A stretch of DNA of 64,000 bases, from positions 32,607,440-32,671,439 of the forward strand of contig NC_081371.1 of assembly GCF_030684315.1 (NCBI RefSeq). The letters run 5' to 3'. The translations under genes and the position numbers were made by a program. The DNA is from Stegostoma tigrinum (Eukaryota). This document shows positions 8,941-62,999 of this stretch, piece by piece. Under the pieces are notes generated by a model. The model was not told the origin of the DNA. It was given only the letters and a program-made list of their open reading frames with translations, and made no database searches. The stretch's first letter is position 1. Each line of letters starts with the position of its first letter.

Positions 8941-9105
8941 CATGTACACCTCCAACATCACTTAAGAAATGGTGCACTGCACATTATCATTGTTTGTCAC
9001 CAAATACTTATTCACGGTTAGAGGAAATCAGTCTTTGTGTAGCCTTTGGGACCTTGGATTGTCTTTGTCGCATTATGGGCCAAAATTCACAATAACGCCA
9101 CCTGT

Positions 9106-9226
9106 GATAATGAAGTGTAGAGCTGGATGAACATAGCAGGCCAAGCATCAGGTGAACAGGAAGGCGTTCATCCAGCTGTACCCCAAATATCTCAGATTCT
9201 CCAGCATCGGCAGTTTCTACGATCTC
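9106..9226. mobile_element. Inverted-repeat PLE mini-element with centre (HHR cores) deleted
   Basis: Arms agctggatgaac / gttcatccagct are homologous to 25909-26130. Flanked by an imperfect 14-bp TSD ataacgccacctgt (9092-9105) / atgaagccacctgt (9227-9240). Confidence 0.8.
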
Positions 9227-12200
9227 ATGAAGCCACCTGTATCTACTTCTGCTTCACAGAGGTGATGAGATCCATTTGCAATGACCAATGACCTGGTCAA
9301 GATTGCCTTTGACCAGTATTTGTATCCTGCACGCTTAGACACATGATTCACATGCAGCATACAATGACTACAGACATCTTCAGTCTGTACTACCTAATGT
9401 CTGCTCATTGTAATTGCCCCATTTGCAGGGCCTTGTATCACTCAAATGCTGCAAATTCACACAAAAATAAAACACTTACTCCACCCAGTGCAAGTATGGT
9501 CACAGCCATTTTCCATTTCCATTACACACTTGTGATTTGGATGAGGATGGAAGGCAGCACAGGTCACATATCACCAAGTGAATCCCAGGCTCAGCCTCGT
9601 AATGTAAATCACCCCTTCGTAGTTTAGCCATGCTAGCCATCATACTGCATTACCTTTCCATTGAAGCTAGGGTGATGACTCAGCAGTAACCCATGTTCTC
9701 GAATGCAGTGTTGCACTACAATCTCCCACCTGTATATGTTCAGATCCCTCTTTTCATGTTTATTCCCCTCTTTATATCTCCGCATGCTGCTGCAAACCCC
9801 AACTTCCTTCCCACAGTGATAGTCCCTGGTAGTTCTTCCCTTCCACCCTTTTATTTTCAGTGAATGAACCCCTAGGACTGACAGTGGCCCACTTCCCACA
9901 CTAATGATGCAGAACCACTAACCCTGACCACACAATTATGTCCAAATCCCTCGACTGAGCTTGGATGCTGCGAGCGACTCTGTGGTGGAACCACTGAATT
10001 GACAATGGTCCCTTTTGACTTCAATGAAGACCGCATTCCTTAGCCACTGGGACACCATTTGGCTGAAGCACATACAGTATGTTTGTCAAATTAGGGGCAG
10101 GTGAATGCCCCAGGTGTGACTTTGATTTTGCATTGTGCTGTACAGCAAGATGTTCACCTCCCTTGACTGATCACTGCTGGCAACTGTAACAAGCTGTCTG
10201 GCTTTGTGTCTACATTAAAAAGTAGGAGAAGACACAGTGAGTTTGTATGTTCTGAGTGAGGCAGCAAGGTGCAAAAAGGCAAGTGGGAAATGCTGCGAGC
10301 ATCCAAGTAAGCACAAAGTGAGTGAGCACCGTAAGAGCAAGTGAAGAACCCTGGGGTACGCTGTGCTCAAATCCAGGGGTGGGTGCTAGTCCCAACACAG
10401 AAGATGCCCTGGTAGCAGCACTACAATGGAAGGTGCCAGTGTGGTCCTAAATGCAGATTTGCAGTAGACAACCTGTATTCTAAGGGGGTGCATAGATAGG
10501 TTCTGATGATGTGGTGAGGCTGGTGCATGATCGTTGGAAACCTTTGTGGATGGGGCATGCAGCCAGTCACTGCCCGTGGAGTGTAATCTGAAATATTGGG
10601 GCCTGCTGTCCAAGGTGTAGGCTGGAGGAATAAGTGGTGAGCTGGAGCTGCCAGAGACCTGCCTTGACTTTCATGTTGGGGATTATTGCTAGCTACTTTC
10701 ACTCTACTGTGTGGGAGAATATGAAATGACAAATAAGTGAGGCGAGATGATGTGCCGATGAGATGTAAGTGTATGCACGTCAGCCTGTCACCCCTCGCTA
10801 GTGAGATTTTCATCTCGCTATTCAAACCTTGGGTGTAAAATTGGACTTATTTCCTCAATATTGAAAATGCAATTTTTAAAAATTTACCATAATTTCCCAA
10901 CTGACATACCATTACCCATATTCAGGGACTCGGAAAATAAATCTTTTGATTTTCAGTTAATTGGAAAATTGTTCCTGTTCTATAAATGGAAGGTGATCCA
11001 CTCCAACAGATTACTTCCGAGGTGGAAAGGAGAGAAATCAACCCCCCTTTGTCCATATTCAAATTTATGCTTTTAGTGCACTGGTCTTGTGGCTGGTAAT
11101 GGCATTGGCCAGTTCTAACTGAATTCTTTCCTTCTGTGTAATATTATGCCTTCCAACTGATAACAATGGGGCTGCTAATAATTTATACCCTTAGAAATGT
11201 TCAGCATGAAAAAAGAACATTCAACGCAGTCTTAGTGCCAGTTCTTTGCTTTTTTAAAAAAATATTTAAATTGTTTCTCTGCCTCCCCATTACCTTTTTA
11301 TACCTCATAATATATCCTCCATTTTCTATGCTACATCTGTAAAACAGTGCCTTTGTTGGAATATTGCAGCTGTTGGTTTAATTTGGAGGCAAATGCTACA
11401 TTATCCTAATTTTCCTGTTTTAATTCTTGTCTTGTGGTTATTGCAACATTTAACTGATGGTAAGTTACTTCGGAGTCCTGTCATCAGAACAGAGCTTTCT
11501 GGCTATTTATTTATCTCACCAGACCAATGGATTTAAGTTTTTTTTTCTTAACATGTAACTTACTTTATTTTTTGTTTTATATGCACCAAGATATTGATTG
11601 ACCAAACTTTGATATTCATTATTAGAAATACCGGTAGAGATAATTGGTTTAAGACCAGGAGATAGAAATTTAGCTTATTTGTACTGATTTTTATTTATGT
11701 TCTATGTGTGCCCTTCATGCTCCAAAAATGGTTCTGTATTCACAATGCCTGTGCAGACTTGTAGAGTGAAAAGCACCAGATTCCAAGTTATGGTGTACCA
11801 TTAGTATAAGCAGACACAGTAACTGTCCGTGAAACATACTGATGTTGTGAGTTGTGATGTATCTGCATTCAATCAGCGTGCACAGTGGATATAGTACCAG
11901 TGGTACCATTTTGGAGCTAAGCAGTGTAGCCAGTGTGTGCTCATATTTCACACAGCTGAATGCATATTCAATTGGAGAAGGACACTCACACCCCCATCTT
12001 TTAAATTGATTGTCAACTACGGGTTCATTGATGTTTAATTTCTTGTGGCTATTGCAGCATTTTCTGAGTATTTGCTGCTTACTGTACTCAGTTCAAGTTA
12101 CAAAATTCTGCAGGAATAGTATGGTGAATGCTCACAAACGTTGCCTTGACTTCAAGACTTGTGGACAAACCAGTTTCTCTAAATATAGCTTGCGCAGAGT

Positions 12201-12654
12201 ATACATTCCCCTTGGATGCAGAAAAATGTTGAGAGTAAGCAGAGGTCACATTTAGCATAGGAAACCGCTGGAACACGATGAAGGAAGAACAGGAGTCTCA
12301 GCAGGAGGCCATATCCACCTAAAAGTTTTCAGAGGACAATTCTCCACCAGACTGCAGTGAAAAGCAATCTATGAGATGGCTGTACTTCAGTAATGCGGCT
12401 CTCACTGAAATCAGACACCTGCAGTGACTACACATACAAACTCTAACTTTATAGACGGGTGAGAATGGCATCACCTATGTCTCTGAAACTGATCATGACC
12501 ACGAATATTTAGTCATTAGTTTCATTTTGATAAGAGGCACTATATTTGTAGTGTCTTTTCATTTGCCTTCCATTGTTGTAAGAGCAAAGTTACTGAGGCT
12601 TCTTGTTCTTAAAGACCTTACTACAGTTTATTTTCTTTCACCAAAGACAAGCAG

Positions 12655-12743
12655 ACAGAGTGGAGCTGGAGGAACACAGCAGGCCAGGCAGCATCAAAGA
12701 GCAGGAAAGTTGATGTTTTGGATTAGGACCCTTCGTCAGAAAT
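12655..12743 (-). mobile_element. PLE terminal-repeat arm with decayed HHR (left arm of composite)
   Basis: Reverse complement reads ttCTGACGAagggtcctaatccAAAAcatcaactttcctgctctttgatgctgcctggcctgctgtgttcctccagctcc. Confidence 0.85.
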
Positions 12744-12748
12744 TGCAA

Positions 12749-13135
12749 GTGCTTGTTGACCAACAGGCTAGACATCAGAATTTTTAACATGGAAGTCAGA
12801 CTAAGCTGACTTCTTTCTTCAAAGGACTTCCAAATTGGACACCTCGTGCCAACACTTCAGGGCCTGCTGCATGGGCACCAGCCACATGAGCCCCATAAAT
12901 ACAGATATTGACATTTGACATGTGACAATCTGTAAGAACCTTCATGACACATCTTCGATCCAGAGCATTACAGTTGCACCGGCAATTATCACTGCAGTAT
13001 TGTGCAGCAAGTACACTAGCATTCATACACAAGTACCCAAACCATGGACTGGACCAAACTGCATCTCCGGGCTCTTTGCTTACTCTCTTACCACTCACTG
13101 GTTCTGTCTAGATACTTGGAGCATCCTTCTCTCAC
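12749..13135 (+). repeat. ~390 bp direct copy of 14807-15196, enclosed between inverted PLE arms
   Basis: Collinear match, roughly 80-85% identical by eye, e.g. ctgtaagaaccttcatgacacatcttcgatcca and cacaagtacccaaaccatggactggacca in both copies. Confidence 0.95.
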
Positions 13136-13264
13136 ATTTCTGAAGAAGGGTCCTGACCCCCAACATCAACCTTCCTGCTCCTCTGATGCTGCCTGGCCTA
13201 CTGTGCTCCTCTAGCTCCACACTGTGTTATCTGTGACTCCAGCATCAGCACTTCTTACTATCTC
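13136..13264 (+). mobile_element. PLE terminal-repeat arm with decayed HHR and 3' tail (right arm of composite)
   Basis: ttCTGAAGAagggtcctgacccccaacatcaaccttcctgctcctctgatgctgcctggcc followed by the tail gactccagcatcagcacttcttactatctc. Confidence 0.85.
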
Positions 13265-13999
13265 AGTGTGAATGTGCAGTTTTGCGAGAGATTGTCATTC
13301 TGATGGTGTCTTAGACTGTATGCACATTTGTGGGCACCATATTGTCAACCATGCCTTATTTGAGACCTCTAAAGAGTTTCCATTCCTCTTCATCCTGTGG
13401 AATGTGATCACAGTTAGTGAATCACCAAGATGGAAGCTAGTATCTGGGAATGTAATCATTGCCTTCACTCTGTGACCTTTCCAGTGGTGTTTGAGCAAAC
13501 TCAGTGAATTACAGCTTGGCTACTGAACAACAAGGCAGGTCTGGTGGCGTAAGACACTCAACTCAGTTGCATGACCCATGGACAGATACTCCGCATCCTC
13601 AAAATGAAAGCTGTACTGTGACAAAAACGATCAACACATCCATTGTTTGAGCAATGCAGTACTTAGTTGAGTGTCGATGAAGGTTTCAAAAGGCCTGCAA
13701 GATGTTGCACAGCATCATCATGAAATGATTGCTCTTTTCAGCAGTACTAAGTGTGCAAGGGTGTGGTACAGCATATGAATGTTTGATTTGAGGCTTGTTG
13801 GTAGAAATTGCATTACTGTGCGCTGGGCTATGGTGATTTGAATCTTGGTTGTGGCTGTGGTGCACTTGGTAAGATATTTAATTTGTGGATTCACTCATTG
13901 ACCTTTTTACTTAATTGAGGCCAATGAATTTCTAGTCATATCAAATTCAAGTCCTAGGTGCTTAATGCCTGACACTGACCTTCATAGTTATCTGTTCAA

Positions 14000-14190
14000 G
14001 TTATATTTGCGCCTGGAAGACAGCCTCTCTCCCCAGCACTCCCCAGAAAAAAAGCGAGATCTCTCATCCTTTTGTTCTCCTCCACCAAGATCTCCAAAGC
14101 CACATCCAAAAATCTTGTGGCCTTCTCTTTCCACTGGTGTGCCAGGTTTTCAGCTGGGAATTTCACCAAGCTTGATTGCCCCAGCATCGG
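14000..14190 (-). pseudogene. Harbinger-type Myb/SANT-like ORF N-terminal remnant
   Basis: KEKATRFLDVALEILVEENKRMRDL resembles the RxPRFSxxxLExLVEEVxxRRDxL start of Myb/SANT-like (Myb_DNA-bind_5) proteins encoded by PIF/Harbinger elements. Confidence 0.55.
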
Positions 14191-14759
14191 CACTAACTAC
14201 AATGCAGTGTGGGCTATCTTTAACCGATGTGGTCTAACTTTACATGCAATTAGCCGGTTCATGATTTTGGGCCCCTACTGACGTGCCTGGCCAATAAACA
14301 AGTAGTCTATGCTGGCTGGATGCTGAGTTCATTCAAATGCAATGTATTTGAAGACCTCAACCAATATTTAAGGCTGGTAATTTGTTGAGCATAAGTTTCC
14401 CTGGTTCACAATAGCAAATTCTCCTGCTTTCGAAGTTGGGAAAAAAAGTGTCAGCAATAGAAAATCAAAACATTACGATGAGCAGCATTAAACCCTGAAG
14501 TTTTAGATATAATTAGAAAAAATGTAAACCTAAGAGGATGAATGTATTACCATAGATAATAGCTGATGTCTGTTCAACATCATGTTTGATAGCTAAAATA
14601 GACAGAAATATTGCTGATATAATGTCTAAACAAGCAGAATCTTACAAGGGGGTATGATTGACGTAATCTGTAGCAACATTTGTGACAGAATCATGTGTCT
14701 GGTGAGAGCTGTTTTAATGTAGGGAGCAATTTGCAGCACCTCTTGTGCATTTTGCCAAG

Positions 14760-15720
14760 AGGCGAGGCACATTTCCACTGGGACGTGGTGAGTTGCCAAT
14801 TTAAAGGTGCTTGTTGACCAACAAGCTAGACATTGAGAATTCTCAACATGGAAGCCAGACTTCCACTCACATCTTTCTCCAAAGGACCTCCAAATTGGAC
14901 ATCTGTCGTCAACACTTCAGGGCATGCGCTGTGGTTACTAACCGCATGAACACCAATGCCTACAGATATTGGCATTTGACATGTGACAACCTGTAAGAAC
15001 CTTCATGACACATCTTCGATCCATTGCATTACAGTTGCACTGGCAATTATCACTACAATATTGTGCAATAAGTACACTTGCATTCATGCACAAGTACCCA
15101 AACCATGGACTGGACCAAGCTGCATCTCCAGGCTGTTTGCTTGCTCTCGTACCACTCACTCGTTCTGTCTAGATGCTCAGACCATCCTTCACTCACTTGC
15201 CGTGCCTTTTGAACCTTGCTCCCTCAGCCAGAGGTATCAGAGAGAAGATGATGGCACTTGCTGTGGTGATGTGGAAAAGGACATTGTCCTTCTTCCCACA
15301 TTGCACTGCATTCCTCCAGATGGCTGAGACTTCACTGGCCTGGCTGGCAACCTCAGATCAGGCAGTTGTGATCCAGTGTTGTGGCCTCCTATGCAGTTCC
15401 TGGGGATGAGGCCATCTTACCTGTGAACCAGATTGTGCAGTCGGACCTCTATATTCCTGCCAACAAAACCAGGAGCCAAGCTCCCATTTTCTAACATGCC
15501 CAGGACAAATGTCAGGGACCATGCAGGCAATGGCCTTTTGAAGACAGTGTTGCCCCAAGGGAAGCCAGTCAATTCGAGGATGTTGTGGCAATGGCAAATA
15601 GTTCTGGGAATGGCACATGGTAAAATTGGGTTACATTAGAAGAGAAGGATGTCATTAGGGCAGGGTATGTGGTTAATGAGGTGAGTTTGGTAGGATAGGG
15701 CAAGGCCGAGTTAGACTTCA
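14760..15720 (-). mobile_element. Decayed Harbinger-family element with Myb/SANT-like remnant at ~15250-15495
   Basis: Minus-strand reading across frameshifts gives SLAPGFVGRNIEVRLHNLVHR*DGL...RRPQHWITTA*SEVASQASEVSAIWRNAVQCGKKDNVL, matching the trihelix pattern AWxEVAxxVSxVSxxxRxxxQCxKKxNDL. Confidence 0.65.
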
Positions 15721-25362: not shown

Positions 25363-25476
25363 CCCCTTCTCCTCCCCCATTTCTGAAGAAGGGTCTAAGC
25401 CCAAAACGTCAGCTTTCCTGCTCCTCTGATGCTGCTTGGCTTGCTGTGTTCATCCAGCTCTACACCTTGTTATCTC
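25363..25476 (+). mobile_element. Solo PLE terminal repeat with decayed HHR and 10-bp TSD
   Basis: CTGAAGAagggtctaagcccAAAAcgtcagc. TSD tcttctaaat at 25353-25362 and 25477-25486. Confidence 0.85.
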
Positions 25477-25908: not shown

Positions 25909-26130
25909 TCAGTGATAATGGGAACTGCACATGCTGGAGAATCCAAGATAACAAAGTGTGGAGCTGGATGAACACAGCAGGCCAAGCAGCATCTCAGGAG
26001 CATAAAAGCTGATGTTTTGGGCCTAGACCCTCCTCTCTGATGAAGGGTCTAGGCCCGAAACGTCAGCTTTTGTGCTCCTGAGATGCTGCTTGGCCTGCTG
26101 TGTTCATCCAGCTCCACACTTTGTTACCTC
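25909..26130. mobile_element. Palindromic PLE mini-element (two inverted HHR-bearing arms) with 14-bp TSD
   Basis: ~85 bp inverted arms with a ~35 nt tail on the left only. TSD gggcaaaagttgtc (25895-25908) / gggtaaaagttgtc (26131-26144). Confidence 0.92.
26035..26067 (+). ncRNA. Minimal type I hammerhead ribozyme motif (intact core)
   Basis: CUGAUGA-A-GGGU(CUAG)GCCC-GAAA-CG-UC^AGC. Conserved boxes, stem II and a GUC cleavage triplet are present. Stem I is only ~2 bp because the 5' side is truncated. Confidence 0.75.
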
Positions 26131-28829
26131 GGGTAAAAGTTGTCACTGACTTTGAAAGTTGTCATTGTCCTTGATCAGTTCACTTCTGCCTCTTTCCAGT
26201 GATCAGCAGGAGATATTTGCTGAATTTCACAATTTACAGTCCATGAATGAATCATCCAGGTAATCACAATCGTGCACATCAGGACCTAGAATTATGTACA
26301 ATTTGCAACCAATACTGCCAGATATCAAAATGACTCTGTAGCTTTCCACAGGTTTACGGAGTCGTTCACTGTACATGTATAGCAACCCGCATCAAGAGCG
26401 TCCTAAAGTCTCTGTTAAACATCTATGTACATTCACTTGATCTGTCACCACATAAATGTCGTCTTCCATGTTTGTACAAGGTTTTCAGGGCACCATCATG
26501 ATGACACTTTGACCCTGTAACAGCCAATGATGAGAGATTAAGTCAGAGCTGTCTGATCATGAAAGCTATGATTAAGCCAGCAGTCAGGATGCTACTAATA
26601 GGATTCCAGTGGTTGTACAGATCTGGAGCTGCCCACCAATCTGCATAAATTCTAGTACCCAGAATGAAGAAGGTGTGTTGCTCTTTCTGCAGCATGCTCC
26701 AGCACAGAGGACTGAAGCTCCAGAAGGAGGAACGTGTTGAACACTCTATCTCCTCAGAATAAAAAAAGGAGCCACGAAGGCTCGACAGGATCAGGGATTT
26801 GATGTACTAAGGGACAAAGCAGTGGTGCACCTTAATGTCTCGGCTGGTCCAATTTTGGCACACTTCAGTCAAAGTGATGCAGTGAACCCATCTGGCTTCA
26901 CCTCCCAGCTCAAAGCAATCCTATAGTCCACAAAGCATTCCTGTTCGATCACCCATTTTTCATCTTTATGTCTTCGTTACTCTCTGTCGCAAGTCAGGCA
27001 ATATAGGAAATTGGTAAAAATACACAGTTTTAATTTTAGAGAAAAATTAAGCAGAAAATTGATAACCTAGTGCTGTGTTAACTGCCCAGGCCCATACCAT
27101 TGTCCAAATTCACTTCTTTACTGTTCCTTTTTCTATCAGTCATCTGTTTCCTTATTCTGTGCTTTCAGCAAAGTTGAGAGCCAGATATCTAGAGAAAATG
27201 GAGTGAAGAAAAGATGCCCTGTTCCACAACACATGTACTGAACAGAAAAGAATAATGTTTGAGGAATATTCTATCTCTGTGCCAGCAATGAGGTTATTCT
27301 CTAACAATGCGCTGCAGCTGATGGGTGATTCATGTCTGAGGGTCAGAACTTGGTTATAACCCATTCTAAATGACATAACCCACAGTGTGCTAATTGTGTG
27401 CACCCCAGTTAGAACAATTGGCTGTCCCCATAGTTGGACACTGAACTTCATCATGTGTGTAAGCTTCCTGCCTCTTTATAAACATTTATGTTGGTTCTGT
27501 TTTTATCTTTGAACCACCCCAAAGATAATTTCTAGGGGCAAGGGAGCAGTGATAATCACAATTATGGTCCTGAACATGAGCCCATGTGGATTTCCACCTC
27601 TTTCTGTGCAAGATTCCAATGGAATTTTCATCATTGTTTCATCTGTAAACAATGAAAATATTATTGATTTACATCTGCATGAAGACTATATCCCTCTTAA
27701 TATAAACAATATCAAACCTGTGTGATGTGATTTATGTCTGTTAAGTGAGCTGAAATAACTGGATCTGACGTGTGGTAGTTTGCAACCAAGTCAGGGTTAT
27801 AAATTATATTCTGCTATTTTTGGTTTATATTTGTGCTATTATGTTAAGAAAATATTTGGTGAAAAGTTTTAAAAAATGTACAAAAGTGCAGTGCATTCCA
27901 TTGTGACTTTGTTCCTGTATGGACAGAGGCACTAAATGCTTTGTGTTGTGCTGGTGGTTCAGCTTGTTTATATTTTGAGAGGATTTTCAATGGAAAAGTA
28001 AACCAATAATTAGAATCTAATGTGGTGGTATGGATGAATATGACATTCATTATGTAAAAATTACAGTGTTTGGTAAAGTATAAATTCAGGTTTGGTCGGT
28101 ATAATTCTAACGTAATACTTCAGGTGTTTAGCGCATGTTGGCAAGTACATGAAACAACTGAATTTTACATAGTCCCTATCGGGGACTGCGGCACACTTGC
28201 ACCAAAGGGAACTGCACCTATACCTGAACTGGTTGATGTCAGCAGACAATGCAGAAACAGCTTGCAGAACATCATATCATGGTCTCATAACCTGCTCACC
28301 ACGCTCTGTTTGGATTCCCACAGAACCATTCCATATCAGGCATCATTGCAGAATTCATTCTGACAGGAATGGAAGAACTGAATGCATAGAAAAGTTGAGC
28401 TGAAGCCAATATTCAACTGAGTATGCCACCAAGGAGACTTGGCAATGCTGAAGCCAATGAGATCAAAGGGATATCTGTTCAGAAAGATAGCTGTAGTTTA
28501 TGGATGCCAATCATCACAGACAGGGGGCAAAGTTGCATAAATTCAAATACCCTGACAATTTTCATCCTATTGATATTTTTGCTAACTGTTTCCATGTCAT
28601 AACAATGAGATGAAACTTCATGGATGTGTATTGTAATTTTTAAAAATGCAGTTAAAAATAAGCTGAAATAAGCTTTTAGATAATATTTTGATTCCAGAAA
28701 ACATTTGAAGTAGTATGGAATCATAGTATTCATTTACCAGAAGATATCTAGCCTACATTTCTCCCCTTGTCCCCATGTTATTGAATGCTAGTTGGTATTA
28801 GCATGCAAAAAAGGAGATCATCAGATGCT

Positions 28830-33649: not shown

Positions 33650-33777
33650 GATAACAAAGTGTGGAACTGGATGAACACAGCAGGCCAAGCAGCAACTCAG
33701 GAGCACAAAAGCTGATGTTTTGGGCCTAGACCTTTCACCCATGGCCTGCTGTGTTCATCCAGTTCATCCAGTTATCT
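33650..33777. mobile_element. Inverted-repeat PLE mini-element with asymmetric central deletion
   Basis: Left arm is nearly identical to 25947-26030. Right arm tggcctgctgtgttcatccag is its reverse complement. Confidence 0.85.
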
Positions 33778-52991: not shown

Positions 52992-53540
52992 GTCATGAAC
53001 TAGCAAAGAAAAGGAAACAAATCAATAAGCTAATTAACACCAAATGTTGCTACATAATGGCACAATGTAAGTAGACTTCACAGTTAAAAAGTGCCAAAGT
53101 TACAAGAGAGATTGCATGTCAATCATTGATTCTCATCTAAGTCATCGATTCTTAAGCAATCAATTGAACATCATCTTCTGCATTGCAACAATATGATTTG
53201 TGATATCTCAATGACCAGAAACTATGTTACAGATGATCATTAACTACTTTGTAAAGAATATTATATCAGCATTCATTTATTTCACAATTCAGACATCATG
53301 CCTAAATGCAGATGTTACAGTGCCCTTTTTAAGCCACAATGCTGATGCTGTTTGCCCATGAAATACCAATTAACCTGTTTTTGTCAAAGGTCTTTTTTTT
53401 TCAAACATTTCAAAGTTTTGCCTTCAGGACAGAAAGAATTGAACTTGTATAAGTGGCTTTCATGACCGTAGACCATCCCAAAATCAATACCATATGGAGC
53501 TAGAGGAACACAGCAGGTCAGGCAGCATCAAAGGAGAGAA

Positions 53541-53578
53541 CAGTCACCGTTTCAGGTTGGGACTGTTCATCAGGACTG
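53541..53578 (-). ncRNA. Decayed hammerhead ribozyme motif
   Basis: Reverse complement CAGUC-CUGAUGA-acagucccaaccu-GAAA-CGGU-GACUG. The 5-bp stem I and core boxes are retained; stem II and the cleavage triplet are mutated. Confidence 0.6.
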
Positions 53579-53964
53579 GTGCGGTATAAGGGAGCTTGCA
53601 AATAAATTGGAGGGGGGGGCTGCTTGGGCCTGGGGGAAGGTAGGTGAGATGGTGATAGGTGAACGTAGGGTAGGGGGTTGTGGAGATAGGCCATGGGAAG
53701 GTTAGGGCAGATAGGTGAGAAATAGATGGATAGATTGTCTCAGGTCAAGGAGGCAGGGATGAGAGGGAGGGTTGGATATGGGATGAGGCCAGGGCTGGAG
53801 ACACTTTGAAACTGGTGAATTCTGTGTTGAGGATATCAGGTTGTAGGGTCCCGGGGCAGAATTTAAGAATAAAACCAAAGGAGCTGTGGATACTGTAAAT
53901 CAGGAACAAAAACAAAGTTGCTGGAAAAGGTCAGCAGGCCTGGCAGCATCTGTGGAGGAGAAAA

Positions 53965-54006
53965 CAGTGTTAACGTTTCAGGTCTGGTGACCCTTCCTCA
54001 GAACTG
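53965..54006 (-). ncRNA. Minimal type I hammerhead ribozyme in PLE 3' terminal repeat (near intact)
   Basis: Reverse complement caGUU-CUGAGGA-A-GGGUC(ACCA)GACCU-GAAA-CG-UU^AAC-acug. Stem I, core, stem II and palindromic AACGUU stem III are all present. Confidence 0.8.
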
Positions 54007-54258
54007 ATGGTGGCTGCGAAAACATCAGTTTATATGCAGAAAATATGCAGGTGGGTGGAGTAGGGAGTAAACAATAGGATAGAGCCCAAAGAGAGAGAAA
54101 GGCAGTTGGACAGACAAAGGAATTGCTAACAATCAGGCTGGGAGGGTGAATAGTTGTTAATGGGGACTGTTAGTGACTAATAACAGCGGGTGTGTAATCG
54201 CAGGCTATGTGGTAACAAGGCTTTGTGTGTGGGCTAGGGGTTTGGGGCAGAGGAGAGT

Positions 54259-62510: not shown

Positions 62511-62721
62511 ATCAGTTTGCAGTGTTATCAACTCTGGGAGAGAAACATAAAGCCGAATTAACCAAATTTACCAAAATTCAAAATTATCAATGGAAATTTT
62601 ATTTTTCTAACTTTACAGAATCAATCTACAGTAAATATGAATTAACAGATGAATGATGGAACAAAAACAAAGTTGCTGGAAAAGCTCAGCAGGTCTGGCA
62701 GCATCTGTGGAGGAGAAAACA

Positions 62722-62760
62722 GAGTTAACGTTTCGGGTACGGTGACCCTTCCTCGGAACT
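62722..62760 (-). ncRNA. Hammerhead motif, left arm (U4>C variant)
   Basis: Reverse complement AGUU-CCGAGGA-A-GGGU(CACCGU)ACCC-GAAA-CG-UU^AACU. Confidence 0.6.
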
Positions 62761-62773
62761 AAGATTTTTTTTT

Positions 62774-62809
62774 TCCTGAGGAAGGGTCACTGGACCCGAA
62801 ACGTTAACT
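62774..62809 (+). ncRNA. Minimal hammerhead ribozyme motif, right arm (intact core)
   Basis: CUGAGGA-A-GGGUC(ACUG)GACCC-GAAA-CG-UU^AAC. The 5' strand of stem I is truncated. Confidence 0.72.
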
Positions 62810-62999
62810 CTGTTTTCTCCTCCACAGATGCTGCCAGACCTGCTGAGCTTTTCCAGCAACTTTGTTTTTGTTCCTGATTTGCAGCATTCACAGTTCTTTT
62901 GGTTTTTAACAGATGAATGATATTTGAAATCAAAAGGTAAACTTTACCTTATGTAGTCAATAATACATGGATACATCTTCAATAGCCACAAATGCTTGC

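Follow-up and report, generated by a model that had tools for sequence, protein, structure and literature searches.

Endonuclease-bearing Penelope-like elements (PLEs) leave insertions with head-to-head pseudo-LTRs (pLTRs), a tail of 30–40 bases on one side and a target-site duplication (TSD) (PMC8557442, PMC3846280), a layout to which the insertions described here bear a close likeness. With a purified PLE protein, both strands are nicked and extended, and the use of two start sites accounts for the tail (PMC11167929). Two cDNA ends that cannot be joined to each other would result. Completion of a PLE insertion once the first cDNA has been made is acknowledged as unresolved (PMC11167929, PMC8557442). 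In Adineta, capture of unrelated sequence between solo pLTRs, with TSDs, has been mentioned in a few instances (PMC3846280). Among other retroelements, templated insertions are known for L1, with 22 cases in about 3,600 insertions in one study (bioRxiv 10.1101/2024.08.27.596794) and 3 cases in a second (PMC11702581), and iterated snippets have been reported in Pol theta junctions (PMC2895639).

Our literature search, which reached only a minority of subscription papers, returned no published report of locally templated patches in PLE insertions, and the available portions of PMC9977147 and bioRxiv 10.64898/2026.07.22.740005 contain nothing on them. Here we analyze a head-to-head PLE insertion whose centre is a copy of DNA located nearby. 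New here are a controlled count of such patched insertions, their distance scale, the concordance of TSDs and ages, and cases with a DNA template, and we find that patching is a real, recurrent and rare by-product of PLE insertion.

Results

Two inverted arms enclose a copy of downstream DNA

All coordinates follow the numbering of the window, the whole stretch of 64,000 nt that was analyzed. The left arm (12655–12743, minus strand) is a 5'-truncated PLE pLTR without a tail, the outer few bases of which are possibly target DNA. The right arm (13136–13225, plus strand) begins 4 bases ahead of its hammerhead core and, in the right arm only, is followed by approximately 39 extra bases (13226–13264, plus strand) that correspond to a one-sided tail as defined in PMC8557442. 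The two arms are identical in 78 of 89 aligned columns (87.6%; K2P 0.137, 95% CI 0.06–0.24). Between them, behind 5 bases (12744–12748) that are either junction filler or a decayed start of the cargo, lies the cargo itself (12749–13135, plus strand), a collinear 387-base copy of the donor at 14807–15196 on the same strand, 1.7 kb downstream of the unit, with 333 of 387 positions identical (86.0%; K2P 0.156, 0.11–0.20). Homology to the donor begins 5 bases past the left arm and stops at the first base of the right arm. Arm divergence and cargo–donor divergence do not differ (Fisher p 0.86), and the two are of the same age within error. On all these points the alignments bear out a reading made from the sequence only, which had proposed inverted PLE arms around a cargo copied from downstream, homology edges within a few bases of the arms, and similar identities for arms and cargo. 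The possible microhomology aatt that it noted at the left junction is weaker than described, being at most AAT(T) beside mismatches and indistinguishable from chance at such an age.

Both arms terminate at the same inner base, with no central loss. At its outer end the left arm is approximately 10 bases short; it aligns to position 85 of the reference arm, and arms without a tail usually reach 97–103. The length of the tail and the inverted 5' copy both match the form of endonuclease-bearing PLEs.

Evidence for the identity of the element comes from L138–L143, where the arm aligns directly upstream of the start of an ORF and again past its end. This ORF displays reverse transcriptase motifs, and Pfam RVT_1 was matched weakly by element frames with E values of 0.005 and 2.6e-5, both matches scoring below the curated cut-off. 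By eye only, GIY-YIG-like text is seen at the ORF end in L141, and linker-like cysteines (CX2-5CxxC type, a feature of the Neptune clade) in L141 and L142; Pfam gave no GIY-YIG match in the element or window frames searched. We conclude that the arms are the pLTR of a PLE.

Each arm carries a hammerhead core box CUGANGA, recognized by sequence and family motif, at 12733–12739 (minus strand, with no Rfam match) and at 13140–13146 (plus strand); the GAAA box is decayed in both, at 13160–13164 in the right arm. The proposal that both arms hold decayed hammerhead cores is thus upheld, with CUGANGA kept and GAAA lost, and neither arm has the box pair of a minimal type I hammerhead, which is further marked by an additional base ahead of helix II, the remnant of a palindromic helix III, and helix I. 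Both arms fold no better than shuffled sequences, and an Rfam search of the window found no hammerhead, only microRNA hairpin look-alikes at 62704–62828 that scored below their thresholds. Younger copies of the family retain both boxes (CUGANGA and GAAA), as in described minimal hammerheads (PMC4209133), and helix I looks weak. The ribozymes seem only to mark the arm ends.

Two sibling insertions in the window, at 25914–26132 and 62675–62857, are also head to head, with no cargo, spacers below 20 bases and arms that are 92% and 98% alike, respectively. The architecture described earlier for these siblings is confirmed, but they belong to other, younger subfamilies than the arms of the locus, 62675–62857 to a third one. 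Additional PLE arm fragments from several subfamilies are present at 9100–9227, 25369–25475, 33650–33765, 53495–53573 and 53932–54037, and 146 arm matches were counted in 464 kb around the window.

The insertion is older than the split from a relative

Short-read contigs of the same species, possibly from the source sample, span both arm–cargo junctions with 0 differences. In a relative that is approximately 6–7.5% diverged, a single contig covers the left arm together with 240 bases from the start of the cargo; the insertion therefore predates the split from this relative, which rules it out as a source of an empty site. Flank paralogues did not provide one either, the right flank being single-copy and no fetched locus matching either flank. 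The insertion seems to split single-copy DNA (12290–12654 and 13265–13720) that has no Pfam match and that, from motifs seen by eye, may be a decayed plus-strand relic of a Harbinger-type transposase.

No TSD is visible at the locus, where only AGTG is found at both outer ends. The relative, however, has 24 extra bases, in three runs, between 12656 and 12674. A deletion between the two AGTG motifs would take out those 24 bases in this lineage, and we infer that they fit a lost TSD in size and place, as 10 TSD bases plus 14 arm bases. The AGTG at 12659–12662 (plus strand), which is common to the start of the right flank, is then likely a remnant of the left TSD after a lineage-specific loss of 24 bases, and 13265–13279 (plus strand) would be the putative right copy of a TSD of 14–15 bases.

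The nearby donor is the closest match of the cargo

In a search of the 3.2 Gb genome, in which 40 of 207 candidates were scored, 14807–15196 was the best match of the cargo, with 436 bits versus 97.8 bits for the next copy. The donor is part of an old, dispersed repeat with at least 41 matches in the genome that runs on at both sides. An alignment of 30 copies yielded a tree in which the cargo is sister to the donor (support 1.0), and the two share 33 derived sites in 268 conserved columns, with branches of 0.084 and 0.070. The donor is the original copy, since it continues into the repeat family at both ends and the cargo is cut off at the arms.

The 5' third of the cargo–donor alignment is more diverged than the rest (21% vs 9%, p 0.021). 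Overall, changes were polarized as 22 cargo-derived versus 21 donor-derived, and the excess in the 5' third is donor-derived, for which reason error-prone copying of the cargo was rejected. Much of the uneven identity is due to 8 donor-derived substitutions that are clustered in a stretch of 17 bases at approximately 14925–14945.

Only two close copies of this cargo were found genome-wide among the 40 of 207 candidates scored, with no further arm–cargo–arm units, and the cargo of L194 likewise has only two close copies. We see no sign that the cargo was re-mobilized in these two cases. A trans-mobilized cargo of the Adineta type would have a distant source or further arm–cargo–arm units, and neither was found. 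The label 'Harbinger-derived', given to the donor repeat by the sequence-only reading, could not be confirmed, as neither 12 read-through frames of the window nor 9 frames from related copies gave a Pfam match to a Harbinger domain, such as a DDE_Tnp_4 transposase or Myb/SANT. The repeat does show text that by eye resembles decayed PIF/Harbinger motifs. The cargo here contains nothing but a dead repeat, and the unit is likely a dead scar that records how PLEs complete their insertion.

Patched insertions recur across the genome

We fetched, with 5 kb on each side, every place in the genome (n=49) where arms of this subfamily lie head to head, 62–504 bases apart, without direct run-on of element sequence. 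The spacer consists only of element sequence in 18 of the 49. For 11 of the remaining 31, a donor within 5 kb surpasses every match in 59 other loci, as compared to 32 of 600 random control segments with such a local donor, some of which are donors themselves (p 1e-6). When spacers are wholly non-element, a local donor is present in 9 of 14, and of the 5 without one, 2 look by eye like other PLE subfamilies. The 20 negatives include 15 with element sequence at one end of the spacer, which look like neighbouring separate insertions. Local donors were also found for 4 of 9 short, hand-picked spacers.

For replication, 20 spacers were chosen by eye as non-element before the donor search, one of the source lists consisting of 50 of 91 places. 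Clear local donors were identified for 9 of the 20, one additional weak match being left uncounted. They were found for 7 of 10 hand-picked spacers of the young subfamily, with identities of 94–100%, for 1 of 7 in the third subfamily, and for 1 of 3 short spacers. Mapping spacers to their best matches thus revealed a genome-wide bias toward local donors that was replicated in a younger subfamily. Neither of the two outcomes that had been named in advance as speaking against local capture and that fell within the tests run, a better non-local match for the cargo and an absence of local-donor bias, was seen.

Non-element spacers L078, L112, L122, L199 and L209 gave no donor within 5 kb. L122:4895-5134 (G000:C43:3518467-3518706) is a 240-base non-element spacer between two full arms that is single-copy in the genome; its donor may have been deleted, or its arms may be independent. 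In many other matches to the pattern (including L097, L104, L108, L074 and L121) two PLE insertions lie 60–400 bases from each other, their 3' ends being separated by unique DNA.

With the same exact anchors, 828 pairs have 0–60 bases between their arms. The rate of patched insertions is therefore 11 of 877, or approximately 1%, a rough figure because overlapping junctions and long element run-ons are missing from the denominator and the majority of short spacers were left unscreened. An unselected survey of 464 kb of contiguous DNA and the off-centre parts of 60 loci found, among 87 head-to-head pairs, this locus alone with a local non-element cargo; tail-to-tail counts with negative gaps in this survey are alignment artefacts and were ignored.

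Patch age tracks arm age across subfamilies, and a TSD encloses about half of the units

Across the 25 cases (this locus included), patches are 28–387 bases long and the median distance to the donor is 559 bp, with 24 of the 25 within 2 kb and 3 within 100 bp. Donors lie on either side of the insertion (11 of 25 downstream) and in both orientations (14 direct, 11 inverted). In 13 of 25 cases the outer ends of the arms bear a direct repeat of 11–16 bases, 15 having been scored and 2 dropped as arm or internal matches, with 46 of 600 cross-pairs scoring equally high; all 7 young-subfamily cases have a TSD. Across subfamilies, the divergence of the arms is correlated with that of the cargo (rho 0.77, p 8e-5, n=20), a relation that is nil inside the old subfamily alone (rho 0.08, n=13), and L066 is discordant, its cargo being more diverged than its arms (p 0.004). 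Only 5 of 36 junctions overlap the arm by more than 1 base, and microhomology was discarded as a marker of the priming end, being too short and decayed.

Two apparent trends did not survive replication. The donor lay on the tail side in 10 of 14 cases of the first set and in 4 of 8 of the replication set, and in direct orientation in 12 of 16 and 2 of 8, respectively; both predictions, which had been recorded in advance, failed.

Three other loci deserve mention. L197:4458-5221 and L191:4834-5256 are very young, with arms and cargo 99.6–100% identical, and are candidate polymorphic sites. At L206:4976-5024 (G000:C42:21331689-21331765) the spacer between inverted arms ends in degenerate CCCTAA telomere-type repeats, which suggests that the central junction involved telomerase or a telomeric template. 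We also observed an open frame at L025:1973-2434 (minus strand) that is unrelated to the insertion and contains text resembling a myosin head exon.

DNA served as template in two informative cases

The cargo of L197 starts within the tail of the new left arm, runs across the TSD into flanking DNA, and halts on reaching an older arm, whose sequence would provide homology to the second cDNA. At L203, where the two ends are folded back on their own arm and flank, the copy likewise starts within the newly made arm and reads on into flanking DNA. Nascent RNA is excluded as template in both, because a template with the cDNA–flank junction exists only as DNA, after the cDNA has been attached, and it is unlikely across the whole class. 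The earlier proposal is supported as regards local sequence capture in a single insertion event, and is not supported in these two informative cases as regards a nascent RNA template. The cargo of L068 (L068:4110-4498) is in two pieces, because its donor was later split by a repeat of approximately 300 bases, so that the cargo keeps the state of the donor before that insertion; splicing of this cargo was rejected on the same grounds.

Discussion

The anatomy of the unit, the local origin of its centre, the direction from donor to cargo, the equal ages and the recurrence of the pattern are established, and other loci add TSDs and a DNA template. We consider it likely, with moderate confidence and on sequence comparisons, that the locus is a head-to-head PLE insertion whose centre, a copy of local DNA, was written by host repair synthesis during closure. 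The element endonuclease would cut both strands approximately 14 bases apart, and each 3' end would prime reverse transcription of the pLTR, one of the two starts yielding the tail, with both cDNAs stopping just beyond the hammerhead. As the sequence of one cDNA end is identical to that of the other, the two are unable to pair; an unjoined break would remain between them, and its flanks would probably be resected. The left cDNA end, which we infer to be the one that primed, would then anneal to the bottom strand exposed 1.7 kb downstream, sharing little or no homology with it, and extension by 387 bases would be followed by release and joining to the right cDNA. The polymerase would presumably be an SDSA-like activity of the host that is primed by microhomology, and the junction would be closed by end joining of the Pol theta type. 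In this family, short spacers contain repeated snippets of arm ends, fillers that look like the products of host end joining. Pol theta alone would fit poorly, because both the length of the patches and their distance from the donor are far outside the values reported for TMEJ.

A different polymerase could have done the copying. The PLE reverse transcriptase itself may have reached the end of its RNA, moved onto single-stranded DNA in the vicinity and copied it, and then either returned or dissociated; the scarce microhomology at the junctions and patches that exceed TMEJ norms would both be accounted for. A study of L1 that cites ORF2p as capable of copying DNA leaves open whether ORF2p or host factors are responsible (PMC11702581). 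Landing at internal sites hundreds of bases away, however, probably needs prior host resection, the iterated short fillers just mentioned speak for host end joining in the same family, and the available text on PAc reports no DNA-templated activity (PMC11167929). We thus regard this alternative as unlikely, while keeping it in serious consideration. It is similarly doubtful that a telomerase-related PLE reverse transcriptase closes double-primed insertions by switching to DNA that lies hundreds of bases to kilobases from the cut; if it did, PLE-rich genomes would carry a distinct class of local duplications of 30–400 bases, on a distance scale unlike that of L1 or Pol theta.

Another possibility is a break at the centre of a palindrome. 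The insertion could first have been closed as a near-perfect palindrome, with extrusion of the hairpin, a break at the centre and repair by a local patch soon after, a course of events in which intermediate and TSD would be identical to those of repair during closure, and the age almost identical. Several observations make it improbable: at the locus, which was chosen independently of the pattern, the arms end at the same base; the near-identity of both arms and cargo in L191 and L197 leaves almost no room for a delay; and thousands of short-spacer palindromes appear to persist, 828 of them counted with exact anchors. The discordance of L066 does not favour it, as it runs in the wrong direction.

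That two independent single-arm insertions came to flank an older local duplication would agree with the missing TSD, and chance head-to-head neighbours do occur, as seen in approximately 10 of 87 unselected pairs with long, donorless, non-element spacers and exemplified by L200. This is nevertheless highly improbable at the locus, where homology stops 5 bases from one arm and directly at the other, arms and cargo are equally old, only one of the arms has a tail, and the extra bases of the relative fit a lost TSD; elsewhere, the same anatomy carries TSDs. Scarcely any credence is due to a switch of the reverse transcriptase to a nascent transcript of neighbouring DNA, for which the proposal that PLEs mobilize unspliced host sequence in trans (PMC3846280) offers a basis, but to which donors clustered within 2 kb on both sides, the new cDNA–flank junctions copied in L197 and L203 (impossible in an earlier RNA), and L068, the sole two-piece cargo examined, split by a later repeat in its donor and not by an intron, are all opposed.

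The value of these scars lies in what they reveal about the mechanism of PLE insertion, and they carry little functional weight. They speak for extension of both ends, for a centre that is an open break flanked by the two cDNAs, and for the availability of template DNA at distances of up to about 2 kb, and specific predictions can be drawn from them for the in vitro PLE system already in use. Patching contributes little to the duplication of host DNA, as it concerns approximately 1% of head-to-head insertions with a few hundred bases each.

How do these patches compare to known systems? In Adineta, the captured sequences are read as trans mobilization from elsewhere, and the available text reports no local origin (PMC3846280), whereas the source is local here. 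The patches resemble the products of TMEJ in that foldback and cross-junction templates are about equally frequent there, as are the 14 direct and 11 inverted cases in our set; TMEJ templates, however, are typically below 10 bp and within 20 bp, and the patches are one to two orders larger and further away (PMC11541566). The locus itself, with 387 bases from 1.7 kb, is far from a short template within approximately 20 bp, and it shows no clear counterpart to the microhomologies of 2–3 bases that serve for priming and resolution in TMEJ.

The closest likeness is to the templated insertions of human L1, where nearby genomic DNA is also copied into a new insertion at a low rate and an SDSA-like model has been proposed. 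Their distinguishing features are present at the locus, which was copied from DNA near the site, has its donor retained, and is of the same age as the insertion. Human L1 templates are typically below 250 bp and within 15 bp of the site, in contrast to the PLE cases, of which 22 of 25 have donors beyond 100 bp and patches reach 387 bp; L1 patches lie between cDNA and target, and PLE patches between two cDNAs; and, unlike the L1 cases, the PLE patches in this genome are fixed germline events (bioRxiv 10.1101/2024.08.27.596794, PMC11702581, in the parts available). The templated insertions of human L1 are the precedent for the PLE patches described here.
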